Below are positions 306-34,743 of a stretch of 64,000 nt of DNA, piece by piece. The stretch spans positions 32,001-96,000 of the forward strand of contig CAVYKI010000012.1 in assembly GCA_963769025.1 (NCBI GenBank), read 5' to 3'. Made by a program: the position numbers and the translations under genes. Numbering within the stretch: the stretch's first letter is position 1; each line of letters begins with the position of its first letter. This DNA is from an uncultured Verrucomicrobiae bacterium. GTDB taxonomy: Bacteria; Verrucomicrobiota; Verrucomicrobiia; Chthoniobacterales; Chthoniobacteraceae. The notes beneath the pieces were generated by a model. It worked only from the letters and a program-made list of their open reading frames with translations. It made no database searches and was not told where the DNA came from.

Positions 306-1016
306 ATGGTCGCCCTACTCCGTGTAAAGAGCATCCTCGCCGCCTCATTCCTCACCCTCGCGCTTGCAATCGCGCCAGCCGTCGGTGCCGACGATCCGCC
401 GCCACCCGCGCAGGACCTGCTGCGGTCCGTCCGCATCGCGCAGTCCTCGCAGGATTGGAAACTCACCGGCCGCCTGCGCGTCGGGAGGGACAAATTCCCG
501 TTCCGCCTGACGCTGGAGAAGAACTCGATCCGCTACGAGTTCACCGCCACCGGCGACACCATCACGCTGCGGCTCGGAGAAAAGACATCCACGCTCGAGG
601 AAACGAAGGGCGGCAAGACCGGACGCGTCTCCACCGCGAAATTCGACGCGCCGGTGCTCGGCACCGACATCAGCTACGAGGATCTCGCGATGCGATTCCT
701 CTACTGGCCGAATGCCAGCGTGGTCGGCACCGGCATGATCTCCGCGCACAGCTGCTGGAAAGTCGAGGCGCGTCCCGCCTCCGCGAACGACTCCCAGTAC
801 GCGCGCGTCGTGCTGTGGATCGGGCGCGACGATGGCGCGCTGATGAAGGCCGAAAGCTACGATGCCGCTGGCAACTGGGTGCGCCGTTTCACCGTGACGA
901 CCGTGATGAAACGCGAGGGCTACTGGCTGCTGAAGCAGATGCGCATCGAAAGCGCAAAGGGCAGGAGCACCGATCCAAAGCCGACGTATCTCGAAATCGA
1001 GGACGCGGAGAAATAG
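306..1016 (+). CDS. Outer-membrane lipoprotein-sorting (LolA-like) periplasmic protein
   Basis: Signal peptide; family motifs GTDISYEDL and YARVVLWIGRDDGALMKAESYD. Confidence 0.75.
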   Translation: MVALLRVKSILAASFLTLALAIAPAVGADDPPPPAQDLLRSVRIAQSSQDWKLTGRLRVGRDKFPFRLTLEKNSIRYEFTATGDTITLRLGEKTSTLEETKGGKTGRVSTAKFDAPVLGTDISYEDLAMRFLYWPNASVVGTGMISAHSCWKVEARPASANDSQYARVVLWIGRDDGALMKAESYDAAGNWVRRFTVTTVMKREGYWLLKQMRIESAKGRSTDPKPTYLEIEDAEK

Positions 1017-1021
1017 CGCGG

Positions 1022-1918
1022 CTACTTCGGAATCGTAGCGATGATCTCGCTGGCCACGCGCCGGTTGATCTTCACCGCGACATCGACCTTTTTCCCGTCG
1101 AACTCCTCGATGCCCGCCGCATCGACCTCCAGCTTCGCCATGCCCTTGGTGCGCCCGGCCGTGGAAGTCGGATCCACCGGCACATCCATCTCCACGGTGT
1201 ATTCCGAGTGGAAATGGCGGCCCTTCACGTTCTCGGGAAGGTTCGTCAGCGACACGCCCTTGCCCTCGATCTTCGCATCCATCCGCACGGAATACGCAGG
1301 CTGCTTCTCGAATTCGCCGAGCATCAAAAGTTTCGCGTGCCCGCTCACGCCGGAAGGATCGAGGCCCGTGACACCGTTCTGCGCCAGCGAGGCGACCGCG
1401 GCCTTTGCATTCACCGGCCATTCCGCGCCGATCGCGACTTTTTCCGACGTGCCGAAAATATCCTCGTCGCTCACCTCGTCCTCCGCCTGCACCGTCAGCA
1501 GCGACTCGATGATCTGGGCCTGCACATCGTCCGCGGCCTCGCCATTCACCTGCGCCTCATTCTCCGGTTCGTCCCGGCGGAGGAAAAGTTCGTCGCCGTC
1601 GCTGAAAATTCCCACGGGCTGTCCGCCACGCACGCACTCGACAGTTTTCACCTTCAGCCGCATCGCGCTCGGCAGGCCCTTCTTCGTCACAGCGAGGACG
1701 GTGAGCGCGCCCGTCAGCCGGCAAGCCACGATCGTCTCATCCGACTCCACCTCGCGTCCGTCGATGCTCGTCTTCATGCTGTCTTCGTAGGCGACCTTTG
1801 CCGAAATGTCGAAACGGTCACCGGCCTTCACCGGCCGCAGCAGGCGAATCTGATGCACGTCCGCCGCAGCGGCCGTGGAGATGAACAGGCAGAGGGCGAG
1901 AAACGTGCGTGCGATCAT
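1022..1918 (-). CDS. Secreted hypothetical protein, beta-rich
   Basis: 298-aa ORF with signal peptide MIARTFLALCLFISTAAAA and typical codon usage. Confidence 0.75.
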   Translation of the reverse strand: MIARTFLALCLFISTAAAADVHQIRLLRPVKAGDRFDISAKVAYEDSMKTSIDGREVESDETIVACRLTGALTVLAVTKKGLPSAMRLKVKTVECVRGGQPVGIFSDGDELFLRRDEPENEAQVNGEAADDVQAQIIESLLTVQAEDEVSDEDIFGTSEKVAIGAEWPVNAKAAVASLAQNGVTGLDPSGVSGHAKLLMLGEFEKQPAYSVRMDAKIEGKGVSLTNLPENVKGRHFHSEYTVEMDVPVDPTSTAGRTKGMAKLEVDAAGIEEFDGKKVDVAVKINRRVASEIIATIPK

Positions 1919-1990
1919 GCGCCTTCCTTCGCAGAAAACGCGCCATGCGCCAGCGCAGATTCGTCCCGGACGCCCGGCGAGTCGCCCGCC

Positions 1991-3108
1991 TTACGCCGGC
2001 ACCGGCTCGGCGCCCGCGTACTTTCGCCATCCACTCGCGGTGCACCTTCGGCGAAATCTCGCTCGGCTTGATCTCGCTGCGCCCGCCCCAGAAGACGTTC
2101 GTGTAGCTCACCGGGATTCCGCACGCCTCGAGATGATCGTCGATCGCCTTCTTGTGCAGAAAGCACGCGCTCCTTCTCCGTGCCGTGGCAGACCGCCATG
2201 ATGTTCACATTCGCAAAATCCGGCCCGCCCTCGCGCCAGTAGCAATGCGTGAGAATCTCGTGCCGCCCGGCCTCCGCGCCCGCGCGCTCCTGCATCCCCT
2301 CCGGCACACGCCAGTGGAAGAGCGCGTTGAATTTCGTCACCCGCTGCCCGCCCTGCGACGGCTTCACGTGTTCGAGGAACGTGCTGAAGCGCCCGATCAC
2401 CTGGCGCTTGTTCAGATCCTCCGCGACGCGGCAGAACGTCTCCACGTCCACGCCGATTTCCTTCGCGCGATCCGCCCACAGGCCCGTGCGGATCTCGTCC
2501 GGCGAAAGTTCGCGCTTCAACGCCAGCAGCACCTCCCACTCCAGGTCGCTCAGCTTCACGATCCCCACCGGGATCATCCGCGCAGGCTCCGGTGACTTGT
2601 CGCCGGGCTCGATCACCTTCCGGCGCACATGCCCCACGCCGAGCGCGAAGATTCCCTTCGCCGGCATCAGCTTGAATTTCGTGCAGCCTGTGTGGCGCAT
2701 CAGCACGCGCGCATGTTCCTCCATGTTCGTGCCGGTCGGCGTCTTCAGCGTCGTCCAAAGGCGGTACATGCTGCCCGTCGTCTGCCCGTCGGTGCTGCGC
2801 ACCACCACATGACCGCTGAACGGATCATTCTTGAACATCCAGTCAAACGCGTCGTTCAGCTTTTCCTCCGGCACCTGCCACGCGACGAGCGCGCCCTCGG
2901 CGAGATTTGACGCCACGAGCGTCTGCCGCACGCGCCGGATCGTCCCCGCCGACAGCATCGTCCGGATCCGCTCCAGCACCGTCTCCAGCGGCACGCCGCT
3001 CTTCTGCGCGATCTCGATGAATGGCTCGCGCACGAAGCCCTGAATCTTGTCCTCCGAGGTGGCGAGGATTTGCGAGTTGATGGGATCGCTGTGTTCGATG
3101 CTGGACAT
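1991..3108 (-). CDS. Tandem Lrp/AsnC-fold protein resembling a fused AhbA-AhbB (NirDL-type) siroheme decarboxylase; two +1 frameshifts (about 2160 and 2022)
   Basis: Two HTH+RAM halves (EPFIEIAQKSGVPLETVLERI; LWADRAKEIGVDVETF); GHVVVR and THCYWR motifs. The corrected C-terminus reads ...YTNVFWGGRSEIKPSEISP...KYAGAEPVPA* with the stop at 1991. Confidence 0.65.
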
Positions 3109-3228: not shown

Positions 3229-6200
3229 TCAAGCCGCAGCCATCTGCCGACGACGCCGTGCCGCGAAAAGCCGCCCGGCAAGCGCGAGCAGCACCGCCAG
3301 CCCTGCAAAAATCGCGACCCGCATCCAGCGCTCGGCGATCTGCGGATCGGCGAAGGAAACTTCGAGCACCGCGCTGGCCTTCGCCTTTTGGAAATGGTGC
3401 ACGCGGCCCGCCAGCGGAAAATCCACCGCAAGCGAGAGCCGTCCCATCTGCTGCACGGCCTGGAGTTCCGCATTCATCGAAACACCCGCGCCCGCAGTCG
3501 GCACGGTCGCCGCCGCCAGCGCGCCGGGACCGGTTACGCCCATCCGCACGGTTCCTCCGTTCGCGGTTGAAAATGACATCGTCGTCCTCGGCTGCGCGGT
3601 GACGACGGGCGGCAGGTTCGGCGTGGTTGGCGCCGGGGTACTCTGAGGCGGAGTCTCGGCTGTCGGCCTTGCCACCGGCTGCGGTGCGCTGGCATTCGAA
3701 AGCACCTGCGCCTGCTCCATCTGCTGCTGCCGGTTCCCGCGGGCGAGATTCAGCGTCCGCAAATTCTCCCCGTCGCTCTCCGCATCCTTCCTGCCTTTTT
3801 CCTCACCGGATGCGACCTTCTTCCCCTCCTGATCGTCCCCCATCACCTTCAGCTTCCCGGCGATGTCCATGGGTTCCGCAATGTCGGCGGGCTTCCCTGG
3901 CTTGCCATCCGCACTCTCCTTCACACCCCCCTTGAAATTGCTCGCGCCAGTCAGTTCCAGCGTCCCCGCGCCGCTCTTGTTCAGGACAGCGACACCCTTC
4001 CCGGTCTTCGCCTGCTGCAGCACGATGTTGTCATTCAGGTAAAAATTCCGCTTGTCCCCGGCCGTCGCCTCCTCGGGTGCCGTGGGCTGCGCCGGGGCCT
4101 TGTTTGCAGGATTCTCAGCCCAGCGTGTGTTCTGGACATTCGAGACCGCGCTGTTGCCCTGAATACCGAGAGCACCATTGTCGAACTGCTGCGCCACGCC
4201 GCCCTGCCCGGCGACGACCGTCCCGTTGGTGATCACAATGTTGTTCCCAGTCGTCGCGTTGCTGTTGAGCGTCCCCGCATTGATGTTCGTCCCGCCCGAG
4301 TACGTGTTGTTCCCGAAAAGCAGCACCTGCGCGCGATTCTGATTCATCGCGCCCTGCTGCACCTGCAGGCCATTCGCATCCGTGAGCGCGGCGGCCTGCT
4401 GCTGCGGAAGGTTGCTCTCATTGGACTGCCCCTCCCGCTGCTGCTCGATGCGCCTGTTGTCCGCCTCCACCTTCGCGAGCTGCTGGCCGACATAGGTGTT
4501 CGTGTCGCTCAATTTCTGCACGAGCGCCTGCTGATCCTTCCCGACCTCGTCCCGCTGACCCGATGAATAGCGGTCCACCCGCAGCACGTCGCTGTTATAT
4601 GCCACCTGCTTCTGCACCTCCGCGCATTTCATCGCCCAATTCAGCTTCGCGTTTGCGCGCACCTCCTCGCTCACCGTCGGGTCGGCGATGATCCCATTGA
4701 GTGCCGCCAGTTCGTCCACCGCGCTGCGCGCCTTCTCGACTTCGCGTGCCACTGCCACGACTTCCGCCATGTTCCCTTCGCTCTTTGTCAGCGAGCGGCT
4801 GTCCGGCAGCCATACGGACCAGAATGTCTGCTCCACCGTGATGCCGATGAGTTCCGCGTCGTGAAAATTCCGCTTGTCCCGCGGCGCGAGCTTCGCGCCC
4901 GACTGCTTCCACACCACCTCCACATCGTAGCTCACATCGCCCGGCCGCGTCTTGATCAGCGGGATGAGGATCGCCTCGCGCCCGTTCACCTTCCCCGAAT
5001 CAGCCCGCACTCCCTGCCCCGCGACCTTCGCGCTCACGAGCACCGCGCCGTCCGGCAGTTTCACCGGGAGGAATTGCAGCGAGCGGTTTTGCAAATGCCA
5101 CACCGCCTTGTGCCACTCCGTGCCGTTCTCGCGCAGCGCCGTCGTCATTTCCGCCCACGCGCAAAATGCCGTCCGCACCTCCGCCTTTTCCAGCCGCTCC
5201 AGCACGAGCGCGACCTTCCACACCGGCTGCACGCGGAAAATCCCCGCGCTCTTCGTCACCGACGGCAGCCACGGAATCGCCGACGCCTGCGCGGGCTCCG
5301 CGCCATCGGTCTCCAGCTTCAGCTCGTACTCGCTCGCATTGTCCGCGATCACGTAGCCGGTCGTCAGTTGCGACTCGGGAAATTCCGGCGCGGGCAGCGC
5401 GATCTCGTTCACCTTGCGCCCGTCCGGCTTCTTGCCCTCGGCCATCGTCAGATCCACGTCCACCGTGAAGTCCACCGTGTCGTACACATCATTCTGAAAC
5501 GCCACGTCGTAAATCCGCCGCTCGCCCTCCACGCGGGTCCGCGTCTCGCGCACTTCGGGGCCCGTCACCTTCGCTTCCGGCAGCGCAGCGGGGAGTGAAA
5601 AGGTCGTCCGCTCGATGCTCCCCTGCCGCAGCGTCACCTGCACCTTCATGCTCCACGACACCCACGACTCGAACGCCTGCGCGTGCATCATCCAGGTCGT
5701 GTTCTGCTTCACCGGCAGCGCCGCGAGCGTCACCTGACCGGAGAATTTCTGGTTCTTGAATTCAAACCCGCGCTTCCGCTCCAGCGGCGGCAGGATTTGG
5801 AAATCCGGCGCAGCCTTCGCCGGGTCCACTTCCTTCGCTGCATCCACCGCCTCCGCACCGTCGAGCGAGAGCGAAGCGCTCACGCCCTTGTGCGCCGCGA
5901 TCACCGCCTCGCCTGTCACCTTGGAAAATCCATCCAGCGCGAGAGGCTGCACATCGAGCTGCTGCGGCGCGGCGGCGTATTCGCGCACGAGATACACCAC
6001 GAGCGGCGTCATCTCCGGCGTCGCGTCCTTGAACCGCACGCGCAACTTTTGCCCGTCGCGCCACCAGTCCTGGAGGCGGACGCTGTCCACCGCCTGCACG
6101 TCGAAATTCGCCGGCAACGTGAGCGACACATCGAAAAGCGGCGCATCCTTCGCGTGCAATTGCAGCGACGCGATGAGTTCGATTTTCCGCCGGTTCACCT

Positions 6201-7434
6201 GATACACGTAATCCACGCGCGCCTCGTGTCCCGACTCCGCGAGCGAAGTGCGATAGCCCAGCGCCCCCGCTCCCGTCCACGATCCCGCGAGCTTCACGCC
6301 TTCGCGCGCCTGCTTCGCGAGCTGCACCTGCCGCAGCACCGCATCCGGCTCCGGCACGACCGCGATGCCCGCGCCCGAATAAAGCGCCAACGTGCGATTC
6401 ACACGCCGCGCCGCGGGCGAAAACTGCGGCACACTCCGCGTCGCCGGGAACACCGTCGCCTGCGCCCGCTCCGTCGCGAACGCCAGCCGGAAGCTCCCCT
6501 TCGCCGGCTCCGCAAGCTGCACTTCGAGCACCTGCTTTGAATCGCCATCCGTGAGCTTCCACGACTTCATCCCCGGCGCATCCAGCATCGCCAGCGCGAG
6601 CCCCTTTTCAAAGCTCACCGAAAACCGATCCTGCTGCGCATCCGCAAATCCGAACGCGATCTCCGTCTCAAACCGCTCATACCCCGCGAGCGCCAGCGCC
6701 GCCGTCTCCACCTCCGCAGTCGCAGGCTCCACGACCCGCGCCACGCCCTCCGCCTCGACGAGCGCCACCGAGATCCGCCCCGTCGTGCCGAGCGCCGCCG
6801 TCACCGTCTTCTTCCCATCCGTCACACGCTCGATCACACCCGCATCCGGCGCGATGCGCGCCGACCATCGCGTCTCCGGCAGCGTCAGCACCAGCCGCGT
6901 CGCTGCCGTGCGCGGGATGCCCCACGAAAATTCCCGCGCCCCCGCCGCCAGCGGAATCTCAAACGCCGCCGTGAGCGAATGCCTGCCCGGCTTCTCCACC
7001 ACGAGCGCGCCATCCGCAAATGCCGCCGGCTTCCCGTCCACCGCGAGTTCGCTGATCTGCACGCCCTCGAACGGCAGCGGCACTTTCACCCACGCCTCGT
7101 CGAACGTCGAAAACTCCAGCGTCACCGAAAACGCCGCGCGCTTTTCCTCCACGCGCCCCTCATACCGCGCCGCCCCCAGCGCAAACGCCGCCGCCGCAAA
7201 CGCCGCCTTCTCCGGCGTCCGCGTCTTCTTCGCCGCCTCCCACAATTCGAGAAAGCGATCGTATTTCAGATACACCTTGTCCGGATGCTGATCCGCCACC
7301 GGCTTCTTCGGATCGTACGGAACAATCACCGTGTCGCGCGACTCCGGCCGCATGGCCTGCGGCTTCTCCGCGCGCACACCGACGTTCCCGACGCAAAACA
7401 GCGCCAGCATCATCGAGAGCATCCAAGGTTTCAC
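3229..7434 (-). CDS. Giant exported beta-rich protein, paralogue C (about 1400 aa), one C-terminal TM helix, function unknown
   Basis: Long ORF. Likely GTG start at 7434 overlaps the upstream TGA (GTGA). Signal peptide WMLSMMLALFCVGNVGVRA; C-terminal VAIFAGLAVLLALAG followed by RRRR. Confidence 0.85.
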   Translation of the reverse strand: MKPWMLSMMLALFCVGNVGVRAEKPQAMRPESRDTVIVPYDPKKPVADQHPDKVYLKYDRFLELWEAAKKTRTPEKAAFAAAAFALGAARYEGRVEEKRAAFSVTLEFSTFDEAWVKVPLPFEGVQISELAVDGKPAAFADGALVVEKPGRHSLTAAFEIPLAAGAREFSWGIPRTAATRLVLTLPETRWSARIAPDAGVIERVTDGKKTVTAALGTTGRISVALVEAEGVARVVEPATAEVETAALALAGYERFETEIAFGFADAQQDRFSVSFEKGLALAMLDAPGMKSWKLTDGDSKQVLEVQLAEPAKGSFRLAFATERAQATVFPATRSVPQFSPAARRVNRTLALYSGAGIAVVPEPDAVLRQVQLAKQAREGVKLAGSWTGAGALGYRTSLAESGHEARVDYVYQVNRRKIELIASLQLHAKDAPLFDVSLTLPANFDVQAVDSVRLQDWWRDGQKLRVRFKDATPEMTPLVVYLVREYAAAPQQLDVQPLALDGFSKVTGEAVIAAHKGVSASLSLDGAEAVDAAKEVDPAKAAPDFQILPPLERKRGFEFKNQKFSGQVTLAALPVKQNTTWMMHAQAFESWVSWSMKVQVTLRQGSIERTTFSLPAALPEAKVTGPEVRETRTRVEGERRIYDVAFQNDVYDTVDFTVDVDLTMAEGKKPDGRKVNEIALPAPEFPESQLTTGYVIADNASEYELKLETDGAEPAQASAIPWLPSVTKSAGIFRVQPVWKVALVLERLEKAEVRTAFCAWAEMTTALRENGTEWHKAVWHLQNRSLQFLPVKLPDGAVLVSAKVAGQGVRADSGKVNGREAILIPLIKTRPGDVSYDVEVVWKQSGAKLAPRDKRNFHDAELIGITVEQTFWSVWLPDSRSLTKSEGNMAEVVAVAREVEKARSAVDELAALNGIIADPTVSEEVRANAKLNWAMKCAEVQKQVAYNSDVLRVDRYSSGQRDEVGKDQQALVQKLSDTNTYVGQQLAKVEADNRRIEQQREGQSNESNLPQQQAAALTDANGLQVQQGAMNQNRAQVLLFGNNTYSGGTNINAGTLNSNATTGNNIVITNGTVVAGQGGVAQQFDNGALGIQGNSAVSNVQNTRWAENPANKAPAQPTAPEEATAGDKRNFYLNDNIVLQQAKTGKGVAVLNKSGAGTLELTGASNFKGGVKESADGKPGKPADIAEPMDIAGKLKVMGDDQEGKKVASGEEKGRKDAESDGENLRTLNLARGNRQQQMEQAQVLSNASAPQPVARPTAETPPQSTPAPTTPNLPPVVTAQPRTTMSFSTANGGTVRMGVTGPGALAAATVPTAGAGVSMNAELQAVQQMGRLSLAVDFPLAGRVHHFQKAKASAVLEVSFADPQIAERWMRVAIFAGLAVLLALAGRLFAARRRRQMAAA

Positions 7435-10400
7435 GCCAGCACCTCCTTCTTCACCCGGAACACGCACCACGCCCCGACCCGGTTCAGCACCAGCCCTGCG
7501 AGCCAGCCGCCGAGCAGCGCATTGCACACCGGCATCCACGCCACGCTCACACACAGCGGCACCGCGGACAGCACGAGCACCGCCCACAGCGTCCGCCACC
7601 ACGGTCGTCTCGACGCCACGAGGTAAAATGCGACCCCTCCCGCGACGAACCAGATCCACAACGCCCGCGCGCGGCTCCACCAATCGTCATACCGCATCTC
7701 CAGCCGCTCCGGCGCATACAGCCCGTCAAACACCAGCGCCGGCCCCGTCTTCGGAAGATCGAGCGTCACGGGCAGAAGACCCGCGGTTTTTCCTCCGCGA
7801 TACCATCCGCGCGCGCCCGATTCGGGAAGTCGGGATTTCAAGGTTTGGAAATTGCTCACGTCGTCCGTCTTGGTTTGCGGCTTCGCCGGAGCCGCCGGTT
7901 CAGGTTGCGCAGTTGCGGTCTGCGGAGCCGGCGCCTTCGGGGCGAGTTTCCCGTCCAACTCGCGAGCCGCCAGTTCGCTCTTCGTACCTTCCTGGGCGGC
8001 CTTCCGCCCATCTTCAAACCGCCCTCTCATGCTTCCCGGCAGTTTCTCCAACGCCTTTGCGCGATCCAGTTGGTCTGCATCCACGTTCATGTCGGTTATT
8101 CCCGGACGGTGCGACTGCGCGGCAGGCATCTCTTCGTTGTCCCACATCACCTGTCCTGCCGATTCACGCGCAGCCTTCAGCGTTCCCAAACTGAGCTCAC
8201 CCAGCGCGCCGAGCGACACGCGCCCAATCGTCCGCACCAGCAATTCCTCATGCGGCGCTTCCGGCACCGGCAGGTTGCTCTCGATGTCCGAGAACGAAAA
8301 TCCCTCCGGCACCCACACGCGCCACGTGCTCTTCAGCACCGGGATGCCCGTGGCGATGGATGGCGCGTTCAGCGCGAGCTTGCCGCGATTTTTCCAAGCA
8401 CCGCCCGTCGTCTCGTACACGAGCGCAGCGATGACTCCGGTGTTCGCGTCGCGCTTCGCCGGGAGCGGGAGACGCACGCTGCCGGGGCGATCCTCCACCG
8501 TCACGGGCTTCACCGCGGTGCCGTCAATCGCCGCCGAGAGCAGCGCCGCGCCCTGCGGCAGAGCCACGTCGAAGTATTCCACGCCCGAGGCGCGCAGCCG
8601 GTAGATGGCCTCGTGCCGGTGCGTGCCGCTCGTGGATATCACCGTGTTCAGTTCCAGCGCGTCCACCACGGCCGCGAGCATCCCCGCGGGCGCGTGCCGC
8701 ACGCCGTTCAGCGTGAGCGCGTAGTCCGCGCCGAGCCAGCCGAAGACGCCGATGACGCGGTGCCGCGGCGCGTAGTCCGCGAGCTGCGGCGCGAGCAGCG
8801 AGTCGAGTTCGTTCATCCCGACCGCGTCGAAGCGAATCTCCGTTTCCGTGTTCGCCTCCACCGCCCACAGCCCGCTCGCGCGCACGACATCGAGCGGCGA
8901 AATCACCGGCACCTTCACCGCAAACGAATAGCCCTTCGCGCCATTTTTCCCGTCGCCCGCCTGCTTCCCCACCGGCACCTGCGCGGCGATGCTCAGCGCA
9001 TAGTTCCCCGTGAGTTCCTTTTGGAAAGTGACCGTCCACACGTCGCCGTCGAGCGCGCGCTCGGCGACTTGCGGTCCTTCAAAATGGAAGTTCTGCGCGA
9101 TGTCCTTCGGCACGCGAATCTTCACCGCGCGCGTGCCGCCGCCGAGGAACTGGTAGTTCATCACCGCATGCACATCGAGCACGCCTTCGAGCGGCAGGAC
9201 GTAGCCCGTGAGCGCCGCGAGCACCTCGGACGGACGCCGCGCGATCTTCGACCGTAAGATCGAACGCATCGCGCCGGAACCACGCATACTCGCCCTGCAC
9301 CGGTGTGCTGCGCCCGTCGCGCCGCTCCAGCGTCTCGCCCGGCTGCGCCTCGATGCGAAACGCCGGGTCCGCCGTGAGCGCGATGTATCCCGTAACCTTC
9401 GCCGAGTCCGCGATCTTCGCATCGCCGAGCGTGATCGAAATCCCCTCCGCCGGAAGCTGCGTCCATTTCTCCGGCTCGATGCGCGTGCGCACGCGGAACA
9501 CGCGCGGCTTCACGGATTCGTCGCTCCACTTGATGAGCACCCTGCCGCCCTCGCGCGTCCACTCCGGCTCGGTTTCACTGCCCGCGATTTGGCCCGGCAG
9601 GATTCCCTGAGCCGCAGGCTGGCCCGCGACAGGCTTCACTTCCTCGATGCGCCGCACGTCCAGAAACTCCTCGCTCGCAGGGAGCGTGATCGCCGCGGAA
9701 AAGCGACGCCCCTTCTGCTCCCGCAGCGTCAGCGTGCGCGTGACGAAAATCGCGTCCGAACGAAACTCCACGAGCGTGTCGAGGTCGCTCTCCAGCCCCG
9801 GCACCGCGCGCTCGATGACCACCTTCGGCGCAACGCCGCTGCCGGAAAATTCATACGCGCCGAAGAACCCGCGCTCGCCGCGATCCTCGGGAGTCGGCAT
9901 CCGCCGCATCCGCGCATCGGCGGTCACGTCCTTGATCGTCACATTGTCCGCGCCCGCGATGTGCAGCTCGCCATCGAGCCGCGACGCGCCCTGCAACACC
10001 GGCATCGGCAGCACCGTCGCCGCCGCGTCCTTCCCGATCAGCGGCTGCAACTCCACACCAATTTCCAGGTCGAGTTCCTTCCGCGCACCGTCCTGAAACT
10101 TCGCGACAATCTTCCCGCCCGCCGCCTCCCACCCGCGCAATTCACCCGCGCGCACCGCGAGCACCTTCACCCCCGCAGGCAGCGCAAACTCGAACGACAG
10201 CGGCAAATCGCCGAGCGGAGCTTCGAGGTGAATCCGGTAACTGCCCGCGATTTTCTCCGCATCAATGTCGTAGCGCACGAGCGCCTGCGCGCGCACGGGA
10301 ATCTTCCCGTCATTCTCTGCGCCGCCCTTCCACGCAAACGCCACCGCACTCCGCGCCGGCGAAAGCGCGACGGTCGCCGTGGTGGATTCCGCAGTCTTCG

Positions 10401-11160
10401 TCACCCGCACCGCATCGCCGAGTTTTTCCATCGTCGCACCCGCGGGCAGCGCGAGCGTGAAGGAACCCGCCGCGACGCCCGGCACACCGAGCGCCAGCGT
10501 GCTGATCCCGCCCGCTCCCGCGATCGGCGCGGTGATTTCCAGCGTGACCTTGTGCTCGCCGCGTCCGCGCAACAGCAGGAGCGCGGGCCTCTCAGGCGCG
10601 ATCATTTGTTTCCCGCTCTGCGGCTGCGCGGCCTGCGGCGGCGGCGCATCCCGCAAGACCGGATTCCGAGCCGTGAGCACGCCTTCGCCGTCGAGCTTCA
10701 CCTCGCCGATGGCCGCGCCCGCAAAGTCGAGCGGCAACGAACTCCAGCCGTTGCGCAGCACGTTCACACGGAGTTCCGCATGGATCACCGCCGTCTTCCC
10801 ATCCGGCACCGCGCGAAATTCCGCGCTGGAAATCGCAGCCGCAACGGGCGCCTCGGATTCCGGCTTCTTCTCGCGCTCCGCATCGCGGAGAAGCGCCTCG
10901 TACTGCTCGCGCGTCAGCAGCACCGCATTCTTGTCGAGCACATGCCCGAGCTTGTCCACCGGCACCCAAAGCTCCCGGCGATCCGGCGGCTTCGGCGCGG
11001 CGGGCTCCGCGCGCGCCGCGATGGATGGAAGCACCAATGCGATCAGCAGCGCGACGAAAACATGTAGCCGCGCTTGTAAAAGCGCGGGCACTCTTTGCAT
11101 TCGCGCGGGAAAATCAGCCCGCGCCTTTACAAGCGCAGCTACGATCGGTTTCGCACTCAT
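7431..11160 (-). CDS. Giant exported beta-rich protein, paralogue B (about 1240 aa), C-terminal TM helices; +1 frameshift near 9250
   Basis: Joins ORFs 9079..11448 and 7431..9422 (DAFDLTV/KIARRPSEVLAAL). ATG 11160 overlaps the upstream TGA; an alternative start lies at 11100. Signal-like segment VFVALLIALVLPSIAARA. Confidence 0.8.
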
Positions 11161-14100
11161 GGCTGCGCGGGCGGCTCGGTAGGTTTCGTTTCCTGCGCAG
11201 CCTGCCTTGCCGCAAATCTCTCCGCGCGCTTCTCCGCCTCCTCGGCGGCGAACTTCGCGGCCAATGCCTGGCGCTCGCGCCGCCGCTCCATGCACGCGGC
11301 CAGCCAGGCGCGGATTCCGCAGATCAGCCAGATGCCCACGCCTGCGAACACGCCGATGGACGCCATCTGCCACGGCCCGGCAGAGCGCGGATTCACCGTG
11401 CCGGAAACGACCAACGCGCCGAGCCCGACGAAAATGAAATACGCCCACTTCGCTCCGCGCTCGCGACGCAAGAGCGCGATGGCCCCGGCAAACGCCAGCA
11501 GCGCCGCCATCGCCTCGACGAGGAACGCGAACGTCTTTCCGCGATGCGACACACTCACCGTCGCGGGCGCATCCATCCGCCGCAGATCCGCGCGCACGCC
11601 TTCCTTGCGGAGTTGCGTGTCGAAGCCCGCGCGTTTCGGCGGCGGCATCGGCGGCGTGGCGACATTCTGCACGTTCAGCGCGGACGGCGCAGCCGGGCCG
11701 ATCTGCGGGAGGTAAAACCGCAGCCCGCGCGCAATCCGTTCCCAGCCGAACGCGCCCACGTCCTCGCGCATCGCCCCGCCAAAATCCACGTAGCGCTGCG
11801 AGGCCGGCAGGAAGAGCGTCCAGTGCGTCTGCAGCACCTTCACGTCGGAGAGCCGCGGCGGCTCCAGGTCAAAATTCCCGCGCCAGCCGAACTTTTCGCC
11901 CGGCTTCGCGCTCGGCACTTCATAGACGAAACGCACGGGGAATTCCGCATTGCCGTCCTGCCGCGCTGGCAGGCGGATGAGCACTTCGTTGCGATCCGGC
12001 CGCTTGCTCGGCTGCTGCGGTTCGCCATTTACGAACGCATCGCTCAGGAGCCGCGCCTGCTTCCCGCCGCGCGACGGGAGCTGGATGCTGAAGAACTGCT
12101 GCGAGTTGTTTTTCACCCAATAGATCACCTCGGTCGTCTCCGCCGCGTCCTCGGCGATCACGCTCGTGAGCACCGCGCTCGTCACGATGGCCTGCGGCAC
12201 GTCGAGGTAGAGATTCTTCGACACGCTCAGCGAGAGCGACACGGGATGCTGGCTGTATTTGTAGGCGAGGAAAATCCCGTCGCGTTGCAGCGCGGCGTTC
12301 AGCTCCTTCGGGTCAATCGTCTCCAGCCCCTTCGAGTCCGTCTTGGTGAATTCGAGGTTGCCGTCCTTCAGCACCGCGACCTGTCCCGTCTCGCGGAAAA
12401 CGCCGGGCGTCTTCACCTCGTGCAGCGTCACGGGCAGCACCACGCCGGGCTTTTGCTCCGCGCGCGCCGCGTCGTGGGAAAAGGTGAGCGTGTGCGCGCC
12501 GAGCACCTTGTCCTGCAGCACGACGCGCCAGATCACCGCGCCCGTCGGCTGCCCCGCGGCATCGAGCGCGTCGCTCTTGATGCGCTCCTTGATGTTCGCA
12601 CCCTCGATTTGCAAATCGTCCGCGATCGCCTTCGGCACCTCGACGCTGAACTCATTCACGCCCGGCAAACTCCACGTTGAAATTCACAATCCACGAATGC
12701 CGCGTGAGCGTCTCGCGCACATCGAGCAGCGTGAGCACATCGGCGGACACGCGCGGCTTGCGCAGCTCGAATGCGATCTGCGCCGCCTTCACCGCCGCCG
12801 CCGACTGCGAGCGATATCGGAAGCCGATCGTGAGCGGCGTCTGCGCGGGATTCGCCGCCACCATGCCTTCGAGATTGCGGATGTCCTCCTCGCGCATGTC
12901 GCCCTTGTCCGTCGTGTTCGCCTTCAGGCTCAGGTGAATGGCGAGGCCCACCTTTGCATCGTGGCGCTCCGCGGCGAGCGGATTGAAAACGGGCACCGTC
13001 ACCGCGTCGCCCGCATTCGCGCGCGGCGCATCGGCCGTGAGATGAAATTGAAACACACCGAGCTGGCGCGACTTGAACTTCACGCTCATCACGCGCTTGC
13101 CGCCCGACCTCCGCCACCGTGCTGCTCTCGACCATCGGGCCGACCGCCTCCTCATTCCGATACCCGGCCGGCAGCTCGATCTGCACCCCGAAGATGCCCG
13201 CCTTTTTCACCGTGTAGCTGAAGCGCGTGTTCAGCGTCAGCGTCTCCGTGCCGACCGTGAGCAACGACAGACTCGCCACTTCCACCTGCGGTTTTGCCTC
13301 GGTGACATTCAGCACGCCCGCGTACGGCAGGCGCAGATAGCGGTAGCTGCCCACGAGCCCCGGCTGCGTTTTTCCGTCCTTCGTCAGCGCGACGCCCTGC
13401 TGCGTGAGGTTCTGGAGATCCGACGGCTCGACGACCAATTCCGCGTCCGCATTCACCGTGATGCTCCCGCTCTGCCGCTCGACATTCAGCGCCGACACGA
13501 CCGGCAGCGCGGGCTTCTGCGGCAGCGCGCCGAGCGCGGCTTCCAGCGTGAGCCGCAGTTGATACGAGTCCTTCGCAGGAGTGTGCAGCTCGATGTGAAT
13601 GCCCTGCCCCGCCTGCCCCGCGACGCCCGCCGCCGGCTTCCATTCGCGGATATTCGCGCCCTCGACGCTGAGCACCTGCTGGTCCAACGGCACCGTCACG
13701 TCAAACGCACTCACACCTGTGCGCAGGATGCGGTAGCTCATCGTCACGTCCGTCCGCAGCGCGCCGCCGCCCACGCGCACGACCGTCTGCGCATCCGCAA
13801 AAAGCAGCGCGGGCAGCGCCGTCTCGCCGCCCTTCTTCGCCCAGGAAATCGTCACCTGCTGCGAAGCGCCGAAATACACCGAGAGCTTCGTCCCCTCGCC
13901 CTGCTCCACGGCGCTGAACGCCGACGCCGGCGTGATCGTGAACTCCAATCCCTTCTCCGGGATCGTGAGTTCAAACTGCGACACCGCCGTGCCCGGCAGC
14001 TTCAGCGGCAGCGTCGCGCGCCCCTTGTCGCGCGTGACCTTTCCAAAGATGACCGCATCGAGCGTGTATGCGCCCTTCTTCGGAAAAATGATCGTCTGCC

Positions 14101-14551
14101 CGTCCTTCGTCGCATTCAGCAGCGCCGTCGTCTTTGCCTCCGCGAGCGCGAGATCCGTCCCGAGCGAAATCTGCGACCAGCCCTCCTTCAGCGCCTCGAA
14201 GTTCACCTTCGCCTTTATCTCCGCAAGATCGCCCTCCACTTTCCCCGAGTAAGTCGCGCCCGCCACCACGCCATCCACCGGCGGCTCCGTCTTCTTCAGC
14301 TTGTCCGGCAAATTCACCTTGTTCCACATCTCAAGGAATTCGCGGTACGGCAAAAACACGCCCTGCTCCTGTCCGGCGAAAACTTCCTCCAGCTTCTCGA
14401 ACGGCACAAAAATCGTCTGCTCCTTCGTGATGACCTTCGGCGGCTGCACGGGCGCAATTGGTGGCGCAGGCGGCACCGGCGGCGGCTCCTGTGCGGACGC
14501 GATCACGAGCAGCGCCGGAAACAACAGCGCGAGGAGACGGAGGATTTTCAT
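11157..14551 (-). CDS. Giant exported beta-rich protein, paralogue A (about 1130 aa), C-terminal TM helices; +1 frameshifts near 13105 and 12661
   Basis: Joins ORFs 12656..14551, 12652..13155 and 11157..12668 (AEVG/GKRVMSV; VEFAG/VNEFSV). Signal peptide MKILRLLALLFPALLVIASA. Confidence 0.8.
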
Positions 14552-14987
14552 GCGGAGGGAATCTTGCCGAAAGTGCTCCGGCGATTGTCAGGTTTTGGAG
14601 CGGCGGTTGTAAAAGAATTGTCAGTCCGCGGCGAGACATTCCATCCGCGGGCGTCATCCGCGGAATGAGGACCACGCACCGCGTTACGCACCACGCCCAT
14701 GCGCACCGCACCCGGCTGGGCCAGGCGCCGGACGTTTCCCCAAACGCCCGGCGCCCTCCCCGCCTTTCGCGGGATGCCCCCTTGTTGACGGATCGTGAGA
14801 ACGCTCCCTCACCTCCCGGATACCGCGTTTCGCGCCGTTTGTTACCGAGGTTGAGCAAAAATCTTCGTGGACCGGCTCATTTTGAGGTCACTCCGGCTCT
14901 TTTGCCCGGAACAGAGCCCGCGAAGCGGTTCGTCGCCCAAATTCACCTTGCCCGACCCGGCTCCCGCTTTAAGTATCCTCCTCCGAC

Positions 14988-15514
14988 ATGAGCACCACCA
15001 CACCGGCCGCCTACGACTCGAAGATCGAGGGCAACATCATCTTCACCAAGGTCGATGCCGCCATCAACTGGATGCGCAAAAACTCGCTCTGGCCGATGCC
15101 GATGGGCCTCGCCTGCTGCGCCATCGAGCTCATGGCCACCGGCGCGTCGCGCTTCGACATCTCGCGCTTCGGCGCGGAGGTCATGCGCTTTTCGCCGCGG
15201 CAGAGCGACGTGATGATCGTCGCCGGCACCGTCACCTACAAAATGGCGCTCGCCGTGAAACGCATCTGGGACCAGATGCCCGAGCCGAAATGGTGCATCG
15301 CCATGGGCGCCTGCGCGTCAGCAGCGGCGGCATGTATCGCAGCTACGCCGTGCTCCAGGGCATCGACCAGCTCATCCCCGTGGACGTCTATATCTCCGGC
15401 TGCCCGCCGCGCCCCGAGGCGCTCATCGAGGGCCTGATCCGCCTCCAGCGGAAGATCGACGGCGAGAAGTCCTTCCTCGCGCAGAAGCCGGAGCTGGTCG
15501 CCGCCTTGAGTTAA
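14988..15514 (+). CDS. nuoB: NADH-quinone oxidoreductase subunit B; frameshift near 15318
   Basis: [44 protein letters not shown], then [15 protein letters not shown] in the shifted frame. Confidence 0.95.
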
Positions 15515-15640: not shown

Positions 15641-16231
15641 ATGGCCATCAATCTCGAAGTCCCCGCATCCACCAAGAAGGACGCCGCCGCGCTCGCCGCG
15701 AAATTCACCATCGTCTCGCAAAAGGAATTCCGCGGCGAACTCACGCTCACCGTGAACCGCGCGCAGTTCCACGACATCGCCGCATTCCTCCGCGACCAGC
15801 TCGGCTACACGTATCTCATCGATGTCAGCAGCGTGGATCACTTCGGCCAGGAGCCGCGCTACGAGGTCGTCTATGAGCTGCAGAACTTCGAGCGCGCCGA
15901 CCACCTCCGCGTGAAATACACCGTGAGCGAGGACGACGCCACCGCGCCCACCGTCACCGACCTCTGGGCCACCGCCGACTGGCACGAGCGCGAAGTGTAC
16001 GACATGATGGGCATCCGCTTCACCGGCCATCCCGACCTGCGCCGCATCCTCATGTGGGAAGGCTACCCGTTCTTCCCGCTGCGAAAGGACTTCCCGCTCG
16101 CCGGCAAGGACAGCGACACGCCCGACGTGGCCTTCTCGCGCGCCGCCCCGCTCGCTGGCGGCCCCTTCGTCACATCGCCCACCGGCGGCGACACGCAGGA
16201 CCGCGAACCGCGCTCGCGCGAGATGGAGTGA
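15641..16231 (+). CDS. nuoC: NADH-quinone oxidoreductase subunit C
   Basis: LWATADWHEREVYDMMGIRFTGHPDLRRIL...FPLRKDFP signature. Confidence 0.95.
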   Translation: MAINLEVPASTKKDAAALAAKFTIVSQKEFRGELTLTVNRAQFHDIAAFLRDQLGYTYLIDVSSVDHFGQEPRYEVVYELQNFERADHLRVKYTVSEDDATAPTVTDLWATADWHEREVYDMMGIRFTGHPDLRRILMWEGYPFFPLRKDFPLAGKDSDTPDVAFSRAAPLAGGPFVTSPTGGDTQDREPRSREME

Positions 16232-21830: not shown

Positions 21831-22720
21831 GAGCGTGTCATGCACTTTGACGGAAGAGCGAGCCGAGCATGAGGGTAATGAAGGCCAGCCAGTGAAGGCC
21901 GGCAAAAGTTTGGGGCAATCGTTCGTAGTCCTTGGCCAGTCTGCGGAAGCGCGCCATCCAGGCGAAGGAACGTTCCACCACCCAGCGCCTGGGCAGGAGG
22001 ACAAACCCGCGCTTGGCCGTGCTGAGTTTGACCACTTCGAGCTGGATGCCCTGCGCTGCGGCGGCGTCCGCCGCGTCCCGGCCGGTGTAGCCTTGGTCCA
22101 CATACGCCAGCCCGACGCTCTGCCCGGTGGCTTGCTGCACTTCTTTGGCCAGCGCCTCGACTTGCGCGCGCTCCTGCTGGTCGGCGCTGGTCACGCGCAG
22201 CGCCAGCAAATGTCCGAGCGTGTCCACCGCGATATGCACCTTCGAACCCTTGCGCCGCTTGTGCCCGTCATAGCCCGCGCGCGCCCCGCTCTCGGGCGTG
22301 GATTGCACCGTCCGTCCATCAAGGACCACCGCGCTCGGCTCCTCCGCGCGTTCCAGGATCAAGCGCAGGATGCGCCGCAGGTCCGCCGCCATGTCCTCGA
22401 AAATCCCCGCCGCGATCCAACGCAGCGTCTGCTGCTGGATCGCCTGCCAGGGCGGCAGGTCGTGCGGCAGCATCCGCCACGGGCAGCCCGCACGCACCAT
22501 GTAACGCAGCCCGTTGAACACCGTGCGCAATGCATGCTTTCTCTGCGCAGCTTCCTCATTCATCAGCGTCAGGTACGGTGCGCAAAACGCCCACTCCTCG
22601 TCGGTGACGTCGCTCGGATACGTTTTCTTTTGGTCAGTTTTGTGTGCCATCCCGAGCCTGATGCCGGGATGTATTTACAAAGTACAGACCTTTCTTTCAA
22701 CCCAAGTGCATGACACGCTC
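21831..22720 (-). mobile_element. Complete IS5-family insertion sequence, 890 bp
   Basis: Perfect 17-bp TIRs GAGCGTGTCATGCACTT (21831-21847) and AAGTGCATGACACGCTC (22704-22720); TA duplicated in a CTAG target. Confidence 0.95.
21838..22650 (-). CDS. IS5-family DDE transposase
   Basis: YPSDVTDEEW, GCPWRMLPHDLPPW, VVLDGRTV, GYDGHKRRKGSKVHIAVDTLG, VDQGY, RWVVERSFAW. Confidence 0.96.
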   Translation of the reverse strand: MAHKTDQKKTYPSDVTDEEWAFCAPYLTLMNEEAAQRKHALRTVFNGLRYMVRAGCPWRMLPHDLPPWQAIQQQTLRWIAAGIFEDMAADLRRILRLILERAEEPSAVVLDGRTVQSTPESGARAGYDGHKRRKGSKVHIAVDTLGHLLALRVTSADQQERAQVEALAKEVQQATGQSVGLAYVDQGYTGRDAADAAAAQGIQLEVVKLSTAKRGFVLLPRRWVVERSFAWMARFRRLAKDYERLPQTFAGLHWLAFITLMLGSLFRQSA

Positions 22721-32772: not shown

Positions 32773-33372
32773 ATGAAACGCCTGCTCCCCCTCCTCCTCG
32801 CCCTCGCCACCGCCACATCCCTGCGCGCCGCGGACCAGCCCATCGACATCGAACGCGCGAAGGAGCTCTTCCAGCGCTCGCAGTCCGGCGGGAAGCTGAC
32901 GGACGACGAACAGAAATACCTCGACGAGGCGAAGCGCCAGCGCGCGGGTGGCGGCGACGCGATGCGGGAGAAAATGAGGGGCATCGAGGAGAAGATGGAT
33001 CGCGGCGAGACGCTGACCGAAGAGGAACGGAAGCTCGTGGAGGAATTCCGCAAACGCGCGGCCAGCCAGCCCGGCGGCGCGGAGATGGAACGCGCGCGTT
33101 CGCTTTTCGAGAAAAAGCAGCGCGGCGAAACGCTGACTGCGGACGAGGAAAAGCTCCTCGGTGAAATGCAGGCGCGCCGCATGGCCGCGGAGCAGGCGGC
33201 TGGAAAGCCCGGTGAATTCACGTGGCCGAGGGCGCAGGCGGCGCACGCGAAGGAGCAGCGCGGCGACACGCTCACGGATGACGAGAAGAAGCTGCTCGCC
33301 GAGGCGCGGAAGCGCTTTGAGGAAGGCCGCGGGCCGGATCAGGAACCGGCAACGCCAAAGCGACCGCAATAA
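32773..33372 (+). CDS. Secreted all-helical protein with four internal repeats
   Basis: Signal peptide MKRLLPLLLALATATSLRA; four G[ED/G][TK]LT..E.K units. Confidence 0.75.
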   Translation: MKRLLPLLLALATATSLRAADQPIDIERAKELFQRSQSGGKLTDDEQKYLDEAKRQRAGGGDAMREKMRGIEEKMDRGETLTEEERKLVEEFRKRAASQPGGAEMERARSLFEKKQRGETLTADEEKLLGEMQARRMAAEQAAGKPGEFTWPRAQAAHAKEQRGDTLTDDEKKLLAEARKRFEEGRGPDQEPATPKRPQ

Positions 33373-33481
33373 TCCCGCCGCGACCGTTCCCCACGATCCC
33401 GCCTACGAAGCGCGGCGCTTGGGGATTGCACCCTGCGACCCTTTCCGAGACAAACCCCTCCCCTTCCCACACCAACCAGCC

Positions 33482-34710: not shown

Positions 34711-34743
34711 TCCACCTCGGAAAACCTCACCCATATCCAACCC

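Follow-up and report, generated by a model that had tools for sequence, protein, structure and literature searches.

Three collinear paralogous genes, designated A, B and C, occupy positions 3229-14551 on the minus strand of the window, the 64,000-nucleotide stretch of DNA from an uncultured Verrucomicrobiae bacterium that was analysed here. We regard their products as anciently diverged copies of one module and, as a leading but tentative interpretation, propose that they assemble into a non-enzymatic structure of the cell envelope. Conserved synteny and gene fusion speak for a joint function of A, B and C, which is well supported; a complex and its subunit ratio would go beyond that evidence, and the physical assembly, stoichiometry and role of the three proteins are put forward in conditional terms. 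As the trio is kept together in many Verrucomicrobia and Planctomycetes and, judging from sequence searches, belongs to no described family, it probably builds a so far undescribed part of the cell envelope.

Organization of the locus

The genes, the open reading frame (ORF) pieces into which two of them fall and the signals at their borders are as follows.

11157..14551, minus strand: gene A, about 1130 aa once two +1 frameshifts are read through, 3395 nt
12656..14551 (coding ends near 13104), 12652..13155 and 11157..12668, minus strand: ORF pieces of gene A, each in-frame
7431..11160, minus strand: gene B, about 1242 aa once one +1 frameshift is read through, 3730 nt
9079..11448 and 7431..9422, minus strand: ORF pieces of gene B
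3229..7434, minus strand: gene C, 1401 aa, intact; ORF open up to 7683
11157..11160, minus strand: ATGA at the A/B junction, shared by the stop of A and a possible start of B
7431..7434, minus strand: GTGA at the B/C junction, where the stop of B overlaps the GTG start of C
7442..7448, minus strand: AAGGAGG, followed after a 7-nt spacer by the GTG of C
14584..14613, minus strand: sigma-70-like site TTTACA-18-GACAAT, 33 nt ahead of the start codon (ATG) of A

A sequence-only reading of the window had proposed three genes of about 1130, 1240 and 1400 aa after three repairs, and the lengths obtained here (1130, 1242 and 1401 aa) agree with it. It had also described stop/start overlaps at both junctions; the GTGA stands and so do the letters of the ATGA, but a start of gene B at 11160 is only plausible, as an alternative in-frame ATG lies at 11100. 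The A/B overlap is therefore plausible rather than proven, because the ATG 60 nt downstream yields a more ordinary signal peptide. With start codons assigned by a heuristic, 4-nt overlaps were seen in related loci at 7 of 40 A/B junctions and at 9 of 44 B/C junctions, and 10 more B/C junctions lack a stop altogether. The sigma-70-like site was the only one in the scanned region against 0.8 expected, which is the chance level, and a terminator scan of the region likewise gave counts at the chance level. The neighbouring genes encode LolA-like, siroheme-decarboxylase-like, NuoB and NuoC proteins, in keeping with the earlier statement that neither a secretion ATPase nor a beta-barrel lies nearby.

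Paralogy and shared motifs

Profile comparison places the paralogy of A, B and C far beyond chance. Pairwise hhalign alignments were collinear at a probability of 100% for A-B (2.3e-64 over 847 columns), A-C (8.5e-53 over 836 columns) and B-C (3.3e-51 over 845 columns), and BLASTP among the pieces gave values of 4e-17 to 9e-9. The ancient collinear paralogy that had been read from the letters is thus upheld in all three pairs over some 840 columns. Off-register hhalign matches at 97% point to internal repeats and hence to a history of duplication. Every motif quoted in the sequence-only reading is present in the translations, including the following.

14324..14362, minus strand: N-terminal helix motif of A, GVFLPYREFLEMW, the stretch that varies least between A orthologues
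11805..11837, minus strand: late motif of A, VLQTHWTLFLP, which closes the shared core
8307-8339, minus strand: late motif of B, VLKSTWRVWVP
4804-4836, minus strand: late motif of C, VEQTFWSVWLP

The counterparts of the N-terminal helix motif are AVLLTREQYEALL in B and KVYLKYDRFLELW in C; the model confidence of this motif was low in an A orthologue and moderate in C. The features by which we define the family are all present, namely a collinear core of about 850 aa extending from the N-terminal strand-helix motif to a late W-x-[VL]-[WFY]-[LV]-P, C-terminal transmembrane (TM) helices and the A-B-C gene order.

Integrity of genes A and B

Searches by tblastn with intact orthologues located the frame changes at approximately 13104 and 12661 in gene A and at approximately 9247-9257 in gene B. 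Every break shifts the frame by +1 (from -3 through -1 to -2 in A, from -1 to -2 in B), and the lengths of 3395 and 3730 nt fit two extra bases and one extra base, respectively. In related loci gene A was a single ORF in 47 of 47 cases and gene B in 56 of 58. Four of the five A and B pieces have a GC3 of 0.80-0.86; the first pieces of A and B fell below one coding filter and scored 100 and 71 in a GC3-based scan.

The concentration of three frameshifts within the 7.1 kb of A and B, next to an intact C, could be taken as a sign of decay, with A and B being true pseudogenes in this organism and C alone functional. This is quite improbable, given that three other genes of the window, namely nuoB (break near 15300), one BamB-like and one PSD/PSCyt gene, are split in the same way (found by the GC3-based scan and then Pfam), that a strong coding signal and 60-84% identity to intact orthologues are kept in the A and B pieces, and that all three breaks sit within G/C-rich runs; the 601-kb contig would also fit an error-prone long-read consensus. 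Since nuoB and two other genes of the window are broken likewise, the frameshifts are most simply explained as consensus errors of the assembly, and genes A and B are probably intact in the organism. Both should accordingly be annotated as frameshifted genes (probably through sequencing error) rather than as five ORFs, on a contig that carries a noticeable indel error rate.

Gene order, fusions and the wider family

Related loci were gathered by a genome-contig search with C as the query; 70 homologues of C were found, and Verrucomicrobium sp. BvORR106 and BvORR034 are among the sources of the retrieved loci. Among 79 Verrucomicrobiota genomes the A-B-C order on one strand was kept in all 51 loci with enough upstream DNA, which span at least two orders, and the remaining 28 all begin inside B or C at the end of a contig or locus. 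The labels 'BABC' (L008) and 'B' (L050) are artefacts of paralogue cross-hits and of a missed tblastn match, a full C following B in L050. The module is present once per assembly in the 79 retrieved genomes, and there is no fourth conserved gene beside it, the best other neighbour cluster being found in 8 of the 79 loci. The three-gene order which the sequence-only reading had suggested as a check is therefore conserved, and homologues in the loci examined do not occur singly.

In 10 loci a single unbroken ORF covers both B and C (no stops and no N over 2427-3229 aa), in which the TM helices of B run straight into the signal-peptide-like segment of C, with a consistent topology. Fusion of the two genes fits a joint function and an equal dosage of B and C.

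The wider family comprises 7509 representatives (clusters at 50% identity) at E<=1e-3 and 2451 at E<=1e-30, with named members in Limisphaerales, other Verrucomicrobia, Pirellulales, Planctomycetaceae and Thermoguttaceae. Two-unit proteins account for 51 of the best 150 of the 7509 representatives and are common in Limisphaerales and Planctomycetota. A tree of 82 core units, built with FastTree only and flagged for long branches and uneven composition, resolved an A clan (17 A and 10 single-unit proteins; support 95), a B clan (17 B and 7 first units; 99) and a C clan (18 C and 7 second units; 98), whose internal branching orders mirror one another. Three two-unit proteins of the Limisphaerales type (P0100, P0113 and P0124) form a clade of their own outside the B and C clans. 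In the databases, members are named 'hypothetical', 'autotransporter-associated beta strand protein' (as are some C orthologues) or, by way of an insert, 'DUF1559/PulG-like'.

Protein architecture and predicted topology

All three proteins have a signal-peptide-like segment, the N-terminal strand-helix motif, a beta-sandwich core of about 850 residues and C-terminal hydrophobic helices (three in A, two to three in B, one in C) with basic residues after them. These features agree with the export and C-terminal anchoring that had been proposed from the letters; TM and signal-peptide calls were made by hydropathy scan and inspection rather than by a dedicated predictor. The C-terminal regions are as follows.

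11304..11537, minus strand: TM region of A, with three hydrophobic helices on visual inspection
7455..7670, minus strand: TM region of B, with two or three hydrophobic helices
3262..3339, minus strand: single TM helix of C, then RRRRQMAAA
3340..4794, minus strand: C-specific extension, with a helical stretch, two autotransporter-associated repeats and a Pro/Ala/Gln-rich low-complexity tether
4264-4314, minus strand: one autotransporter-associated beta-strand repeat of C

At a threshold of 1.6 the hydropathy scan returned two TM segments in the A of the window (382-400 and 434-452 of piece A3), and the scan scored a TM segment in 18 of 24 C orthologues. The TM region of A bears a weak LiaF-TM likeness, below the cut-off.

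Distances from core to membrane, measured from the alignment at 24 loci, differ between the paralogues. In A the core is followed by a fixed spacer of about 91 aa (89-99 aa in 24 of 24 orthologues), a beta-hairpin, the three TM helices and a cytoplasmic tail. The spacer of B ranges from 22 to 1016 aa with a median of 368 (23 of 24 orthologues), and that of C is long and variable. In C the shared core covers aa 30-880 and leads into the C-specific extension of about 490 aa and one TM helix; TIGR02601 matched two stretches of C at 34.3 bits (cut-off 19.85), and PATR reached 24.7 bits, below its cut-off of 27.

Modelling resolved the cores into eight to nine beta-sandwich modules in series. The model of an A orthologue (L001; pLDDT 80) was all-beta at residues 89-950, mostly at pLDDT 80-93, with the hairpin and three helices at 992-1123 (pLDDT 84-92; helices 1012-1123), and that of aa 1-930 of the C of the window (pLDDT 85.7) was all-beta, with a helix at 894-929 within the C-specific extension. 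The pTM values were low (0.39 and 0.45), so that the overall shape may be either a rod or compact. Complex prediction for the N-terminal 300 aa or so of A, B and C together, from 36-row alignments, gave 0.53, 0.53 and 0.49; the partner-replaced controls gave 0.00 and 0.00, and 0.45 where B was replaced, so that the prediction speaks neither for nor against binding.

Relation to known families and systems

Sequence searches of Pfam, NCBIfam, PADLOC and the PDB returned no family match to the shared core, and the full-length match to a characterised family that would have spoken against the sequence-only reading was not found in any of the four. The PADLOC anti-phage defence models gave no family for the five pieces at E<=0.01. 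Against PDB sequences the A profile had no match at E<=10, and the C profile had five, all at E>0.02 and in the low-complexity tail (ribosomal protein L19 and similar). All clusters that C 1-930 retrieved from the ESM Atlas at 0.93-0.94 were unnamed and from Acidobacteriota; the closest cluster with a name scored 0.81, which is the chance level. No catalytic family, ATPase or barrel was detected in A, B or C with Pfam, NCBIfam and PADLOC, and the neighbouring genes encode no ATPase or barrel either. Literature searches found no paper on the family; passages of PMC10632474 mention DUF1559 paralogues and not the A/B/C genes.

The best fold matches to the A and C models were Ig-like stalks, i.e. 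the legs of integrin alpha chains, Enterococcus PrgB and the C-terminus of Streptococcus AgI/II (8t2v_A at 3.2e-10, 8beg at 8e-10 and 4.2e-9, and 3qe5_A). Both sides consist of serial beta-sandwich modules and the match is generic, with TM-scores of 0.10-0.24 and an identity of 6-12%. Integrins share with A/B/C a membrane-anchored ectodomain, a C-terminal TM helix, a short tail and related subunits that are encoded together. In contrast to the Ig-stalk proteins, A/B/C are three paralogues of a diderm periplasm and have no propeller, VWA domain, lectin head, sortase/LPXTG signal or sequence-level relation; there was no FG-GAP or VWA match in Pfam, and only the leg-like part of integrins aligns (TM-score 0.10-0.17).

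Ost1/ribophorin I, itself a membrane-complex subunit without a catalytic role, was a recurrent fold match (6s7o_E, 6ezn_A and 7oci_A; E 3e-8 to 1e-7), with about 430 of some 900 core residues aligned and a TM-score by target of 0.25-0.33. It resembles A/B/C in its signal peptide, beta-sandwiches outside the cytoplasm and C-terminal TM helix; Pfam gave no Ribophorin_I match, and no glycosyltransferase of the STT3/PglB type is a conserved neighbour. Likeness to autotransporters is confined to the passenger-associated repeats (TIGR02601), which are present in C only and in the tether, not in the shared core; Pfam and NCBIfam gave no autotransporter barrel for any of the three proteins at E<=1, and the C termini are hydrophobic helices.

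Proposed mechanism and alternative explanations

In the assembly that we propose, the three proteins would be exported by Sec and anchored by their tails in the cytoplasmic membrane, with the N terminus at the far periplasmic end. A would form the membrane-proximal base, to which B and C, on long tethers, would be joined. Through the invariant N-terminal strand-helix motif the subunits may dock to one another or to a distal partner such as the wall or outer membrane, and the whole would be a strut, a spacer or a platform for binding, neither an enzyme nor a channel. A wide and variable periplasm is typical of PVC bacteria. A bolder version is possible yet doubtful: the locus would be the Chthoniobacteraceae copy of an undescribed three-subunit envelope organelle that is older than the divergence of Verrucomicrobiota from Planctomycetota. 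A beta-sandwich strut rooted in the inner membrane, with A as its fixed base and B and C (often one polypeptide) tethered, would dock to the wall or outer membrane through the invariant amphipathic N-terminal motif, would set or sense the periplasm and, in some lineages, would be coupled to a pseudopilin-like module.

Single-chain adhesins and receptors supply the stalks that the fold searches matched (the Ig-like part of PrgB, AgI/II, integrin legs), which would suit independent tandem paralogues, that is, separate membrane-anchored proteins, adhesin-like or wall-associated, that are adjacent only through tandem duplication and do not assemble. Internal repeats do reveal a history of duplication (the off-register matches at 97%). 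The copy number of tandem families that evolve freely tends to vary, whereas each of the 51 informative loci has a single A, a single B and a single C in a fixed order; this, a deep clan for each paralogue with mirrored branching, recurrent B-C fusions and paralogue-specific spacer rules make such independence unlikely. Little credence can be given to the idea that the complex is an accessory that serves type IV filaments or a type II secretion-like apparatus and docks a pseudopilus or pilus base. The idea comes from two-unit B-C relatives of 2100-2800 aa, whose units are joined by a membrane linker that carries a GspG-like N-terminal helix and a DUF1559/H-X9-DG domain, and which sources name 'pseudopilin PulG', 'type II secretion system protein' or 'DUF1559 family PulG-like'. 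The matches are strong in P0156 (DUF1559 1.4e-52, GspG 3.3e-6, HX9DG 4e-10), and P0248, P0252 and P0235 have weaker or partial pilin/DUF1559 matches below curated cut-offs. The domain that gives these proteins their names is, however, an insert of about 200 aa in a bulk of unnamed core; it is lineage-specific and could be a mere membrane anchor with an added domain. The A, B and C of the window have no match to a pilin-like helix, DUF1559 or H-X9-DG in Pfam or NCBIfam, and no pilus or type II secretion gene is a conserved neighbour in the 79 loci.

The large size, inner-membrane anchor, periplasmic location and distal N-terminal helix, amphipathic by inspection, would also be in line with a periplasm-spanning conduit for lipids, polysaccharide or protein, one of the roles suggested by the sequence-only reading. 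That suggestion is not supported: the models are made of discrete beta-sandwich modules with no continuous groove or tunnel, AsmA/TamB, MCE and Lpt proteins are absent from Pfam matches and from the best fold hits listed for each of the two models, and no conserved ATPase, permease or outer-membrane partner lies nearby, which together leave a conduit very unlikely. Bacterial alpha-2-macroglobulins of the ECAM/YfhM type are long periplasmic beta-sandwich chains with an inner-membrane tether, as is known for the E. coli protein, and both bacterial and human members gave weak fold matches (5a42, 4u4j, 4ziq and 6tav). A protease trap of this kind is hardly credible for A/B/C, with Foldseek probabilities of 0.30-0.57, TM-scores of at most 0.08, C-terminal helices as the anchor, no lipobox and no A2M or MG domain in Pfam; the identification failed on the defining CxEQ thioester, which is absent from the window pieces and from all 147 orthologues searched.

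Significance

How the cell envelope of PVC bacteria is built has been debated for decades, and to our knowledge few of its lineage-specific structural components have been identified. The A/B/C proteins belong to a very large family with no relative in Pfam, NCBIfam or the PDB, and the family follows a strict genomic grammar of three paralogues in fixed order with recurrent B-C fusion. If the trio does form a heteromeric envelope structure, it would offer cell biologists working on PVC bacteria a concrete, deletable target and would bring thousands of giant orphan genes under a single family definition.

Gene structure and reading-frame breaks

The three genes were resolved as follows:

14551 to 11157, minus strand: gene A, in three frames, 3395 nt, about 1130 aa after repair
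11160 to 7431, minus strand: gene B, in two frames, 3730 nt, about 1242 aa after repair
7434 to 3229, minus strand: gene C, a single intact ORF of 1401 aa with a GTG start, on a contig of 601 kb

The sequence-only reading had expected proteins of about 1130, 1240 and 1400 aa after three repairs; 1130, 1242 and 1401 aa were obtained, and all the motifs it quoted were found in the translations. It had also proposed overlaps at both junctions. The GTG of C, with AAGGAGG 7 nt upstream, does overlap the stop of B as GTGA. An ATGA is present at 11160-11157 (stop of A, possible start of B), where an A/B overlap is plausible and not certain because an alternative in-frame ATG 60 nt downstream gives B a more ordinary signal peptide.

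Using tblastn with intact orthologues, the frame changes were placed at approximately 13104, 12661 and 9247-9257. All three are +1 shifts with a G/C-rich run at the break, and the lengths of A and B fit two and one extra bases, respectively. The ORF is uninterrupted in 47/47 related loci for A and in 56/58 for B. Three further genes of the window are broken:

14867-15514, plus strand: nuoB (complex I 20-kDa subunit), frameshifted, break near 15300 in a G/C-rich stretch
33137-35090, plus strand: BamB-like PQQ_2 repeat protein, split over two frames, frameshift near 33990
61745-64000, minus strand: PSD/PSCyt-type gene (DUF1587-DUF1595-DUF1592-DUF1588-DUF1585), at least two breaks

In nuoB, directly upstream of nuoC (15641-16231), positions 1-88 of the Oxidored_q6 profile lie in ORF 14988-15437 and 80-127 in the frame of 14867-15514. 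The PQQ_2 profile is similarly divided in the BamB-like gene (41-102 in 33137-34744, 81-232 in 33882-35090), while in the PSD/PSCyt-type gene DUF1592 positions 1-66 and 64-128 fall in different frames and DUF1588/DUF1585 in a third ORF. Since these genes are broken likewise, the simplest reading of the A and B frameshifts would be an indel-prone consensus and not selective decay of the two genes. An intact AhpC/TSA gene (34711-35259) follows the BamB-like gene.

Other features recorded in the window were:

1022-1918, minus strand: ORF without family, joined by ATGA to the following gene
1915-3108, minus strand: siroheme-decarboxylase-like gene (AsnC_trans_reg2 and NirDL HTH), downstream of C, with a candidate frame change near 2160 hinted at by a GC3 scan
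21838-22674, minus strand: IS4/IS5-family DDE transposase (DDE_Tnp_1 and DUF4096), between DAHP synthase and FHA/response-regulator genes

Paralogy and phylogeny

BLASTP between in-frame pieces gave collinear matches for A-B (E-values 1e-13, 4e-17), A-C (8e-14, 9e-9) and B-C (4e-10, 2e-12). Profiles of 24 orthologues per paralogue were compared using hhalign, and every pair matched at 100% probability over residues ~40 to ~920: A-B at 2.3e-64 (847 columns), A-C at 8.5e-53 (836 columns) and B-C at 3.3e-51 (845 columns). By sequence comparison A, B and C are thus paralogues, and the common ancestry put forward from the sequence alone holds for all pairs. Off-register matches at 94-98% probability, shifted by ~170-350 columns within columns ~250-850 of the cores (the shared ~850-aa beta-sandwich regions), show that the core grew through duplication of its own sandwich modules. 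In some representatives of 1230-1360 aa the HMM ~290-480 block is present in one additional copy.

A FastTree phylogeny of 82 core units contained clan A (17 A and 10 single-unit representatives, support 95), clan B (17 B and 7 first units of two-unit proteins, support 99) and clan C (18 C including that of the window and 7 second units, support 98), with mutually mirrored branching within the clans. Taken at face value, the tree would place the A/B/C triplication before the divergence of the lineages sampled, with fusions keeping the B-then-C order. Three two-unit proteins of Limisphaerales type (P0100, P0113, P0124) form a separate clade in which units 1 and 2 are sisters; possible causes are a separate duplication, gene conversion and an artefact of long branches. 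Deep placements are provisional, as the tree carried warnings for long branches and for uneven composition.

Distribution and gene order

In a large protein set, C had 70 homologues, in Chthoniobacterales and other Verrucomicrobia plus one partial Planctomycetota protein, which are unnamed or called 'hypothetical' or 'autotransporter-associated beta strand protein'. The species-representative genome scan returned 79 loci from 79 assemblies (by accession prefix), every one from Verrucomicrobiota: Chthoniobacterales, Verrucomicrobiales (including Prosthecobacter and Verrucomicrobium) and Akkermansiaceae-labelled MAGs. The gene-order survey, by tblastn with window pieces, found A-B-C on one strand in 51 loci and no other arrangement among the 79; the remaining 28 are cut off inside B or C by the end of the contig or locus, and in one locus (L050) C is present after B. 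There was no conserved fourth neighbour, the best other cluster occurring in 8/79 loci. With start codons set heuristically, 4-nt stop/start overlaps were counted at 7/40 A/B and 9/44 B/C junctions.

Protein anatomy

The closest intact A orthologue (locus L001) was modelled using AlphaFold2 with a 42-row alignment (mean pLDDT 80, pTM 0.39). Residues 89-950 are predicted to be all-beta, in eight to nine sandwich modules (pLDDT mostly 80-93), followed by a low-confidence linker, a beta-hairpin (992-1011) and three long helices (1012-1123; pLDDT 84-92). The first 90 residues, including the family's most invariant motif, were modelled at low confidence. Residues 1-930 of the window's C (50-row alignment; pLDDT 85.7, pTM 0.45) were likewise predicted to be all-beta.

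A signal-like segment begins each protein (hydropathy scan and inspection). By eye, A has three C-terminal TM helices, B has two or three and C has a single one; the scan at a threshold of 1.6 counted two, two and one. The spacer between the shared late motif and the first TM, measured in 24 orthologues per paralogue, was 89-99 aa in A (24/24), 22-1016 aa in B (median 368, 23/24; its two 22-aa values probably reflect a hydrophobic segment wrongly scored as TM) and 294-538 aa in C (median 433, in the 18/24 with a TM at threshold). In C the spacer comprises a helical segment, two beta-strand repeats of autotransporter type (TIGR02601, 34.3 bits) and sequence rich in Pro, Gln and Ala.

Fusions and two-unit relatives

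B and C form one ORF of 2427-3229 aa, with no stop and no N, in 10 Verrucomicrobiales loci (L047, L048, L053, L054, L056, L059, L063, L064, L072, L076). Two to three B TM helices precede the C signal-like segment, consistent with both ectodomains lying outside. The A profile searched against 1.84 billion representatives matched 7509 at E<=1e-3 and 2451 at E<=1e-30; the best 150 of the 7509 included 82 single-unit (1000-1500 aa) and 51 two-unit proteins (2093-2822 aa). Named two-unit examples come from Limisphaerales and other Verrucomicrobia (621 matches) and from Pirellulales, Planctomycetaceae and Thermoguttaceae (103 matches).

In two-unit proteins of Planctomycetota and Limisphaerales, the inter-unit linker holds a TM helix, a GspG-like pilin helix, a DUF1559/H-X9-DG domain and more TM helices, and databases name such proteins 'PulG' or 'DUF1559' because of this insert. 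It is clearest in P0156 (aa 1006-1462: DUF1559 1.4e-52, GspG 3.3e-6, HX9DG 4e-10; one TM just before, more after) and weaker in P0245, P0248 and P0252. The insert is a pseudopilin-like module in the periplasmic loop of a B-type anchor. Extra domains occur in some two-unit relatives (P0232, P0235, P0313), either a LamG/Laminin_G_3 domain at the N terminus or, within the linker, a DUF5122 beta-propeller repeat together with Calx-beta; the scaffold accepts lineage-specific binding modules.

Comparison with known families and proposed role

Pfam and NCBIfam searches returned nothing for A and B and, for C, only the short repeat in its tail. Window proteins had no PADLOC match, a sequence search of the PDB found no relative and the ESM Atlas no informative one. 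Foldseek against the PDB gave 199 and 166 matches at E<=1e-3 for the two models (TM-score 0.05-0.33, identity 6-12%); integrin alpha legs, PrgB Ig-like domains, Ost1/ribophorin I and AgI/II were generic fold matches only. Such generic, low-scoring matches point to a predicted fold class of Ig-like sandwiches arranged in series on a membrane anchor, without a specific relative. No paper on the family was found in the literature searched, and it appears to be undescribed.

A, B and C are deeply conserved paralogues that share a layout and are passed on as a unit, often in fused form, and no enzyme, ATPase or barrel was found for the trio. We tentatively favour, as a possible explanation, that they associate into one non-catalytic structure. 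The tandem paralogy could also be read as that of proteins that remain unassembled, which we consider unlikely; gene order, fusion and phylogeny support the co-functioning subunits of the sequence-only reading, whose 1:1:1 trimer is a candidate arrangement. A pilus or T2SS accessory, as the pseudopilin-like module might suggest, is improbable, and the window's A, B and C lack that insert. True pseudogenes, to which the breaks in A and B could point, are rated equally improbable.

The conduit suggested earlier is without support; no lipid-bridge or tunnel protein was among the best Foldseek matches listed, and we regard it as very improbable. An alpha-2-macroglobulin-like trap is scarcely credible: alpha-2-macroglobulins gave weak fold matches, the ectodomains have no cysteine, and neither a lipobox nor a CxEQ motif occurs in A, B or C.

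In the favoured structural assembly, the three proteins would be exported, with their tails holding them in the cytoplasmic membrane. The fixed 91-aa spacer of A would set a membrane-proximal base, which B and C would join on long tethers, and the invariant N-terminal strand-helix motif may be the docking element. The role of the assembly would be structural, as a strut, spacer or platform.
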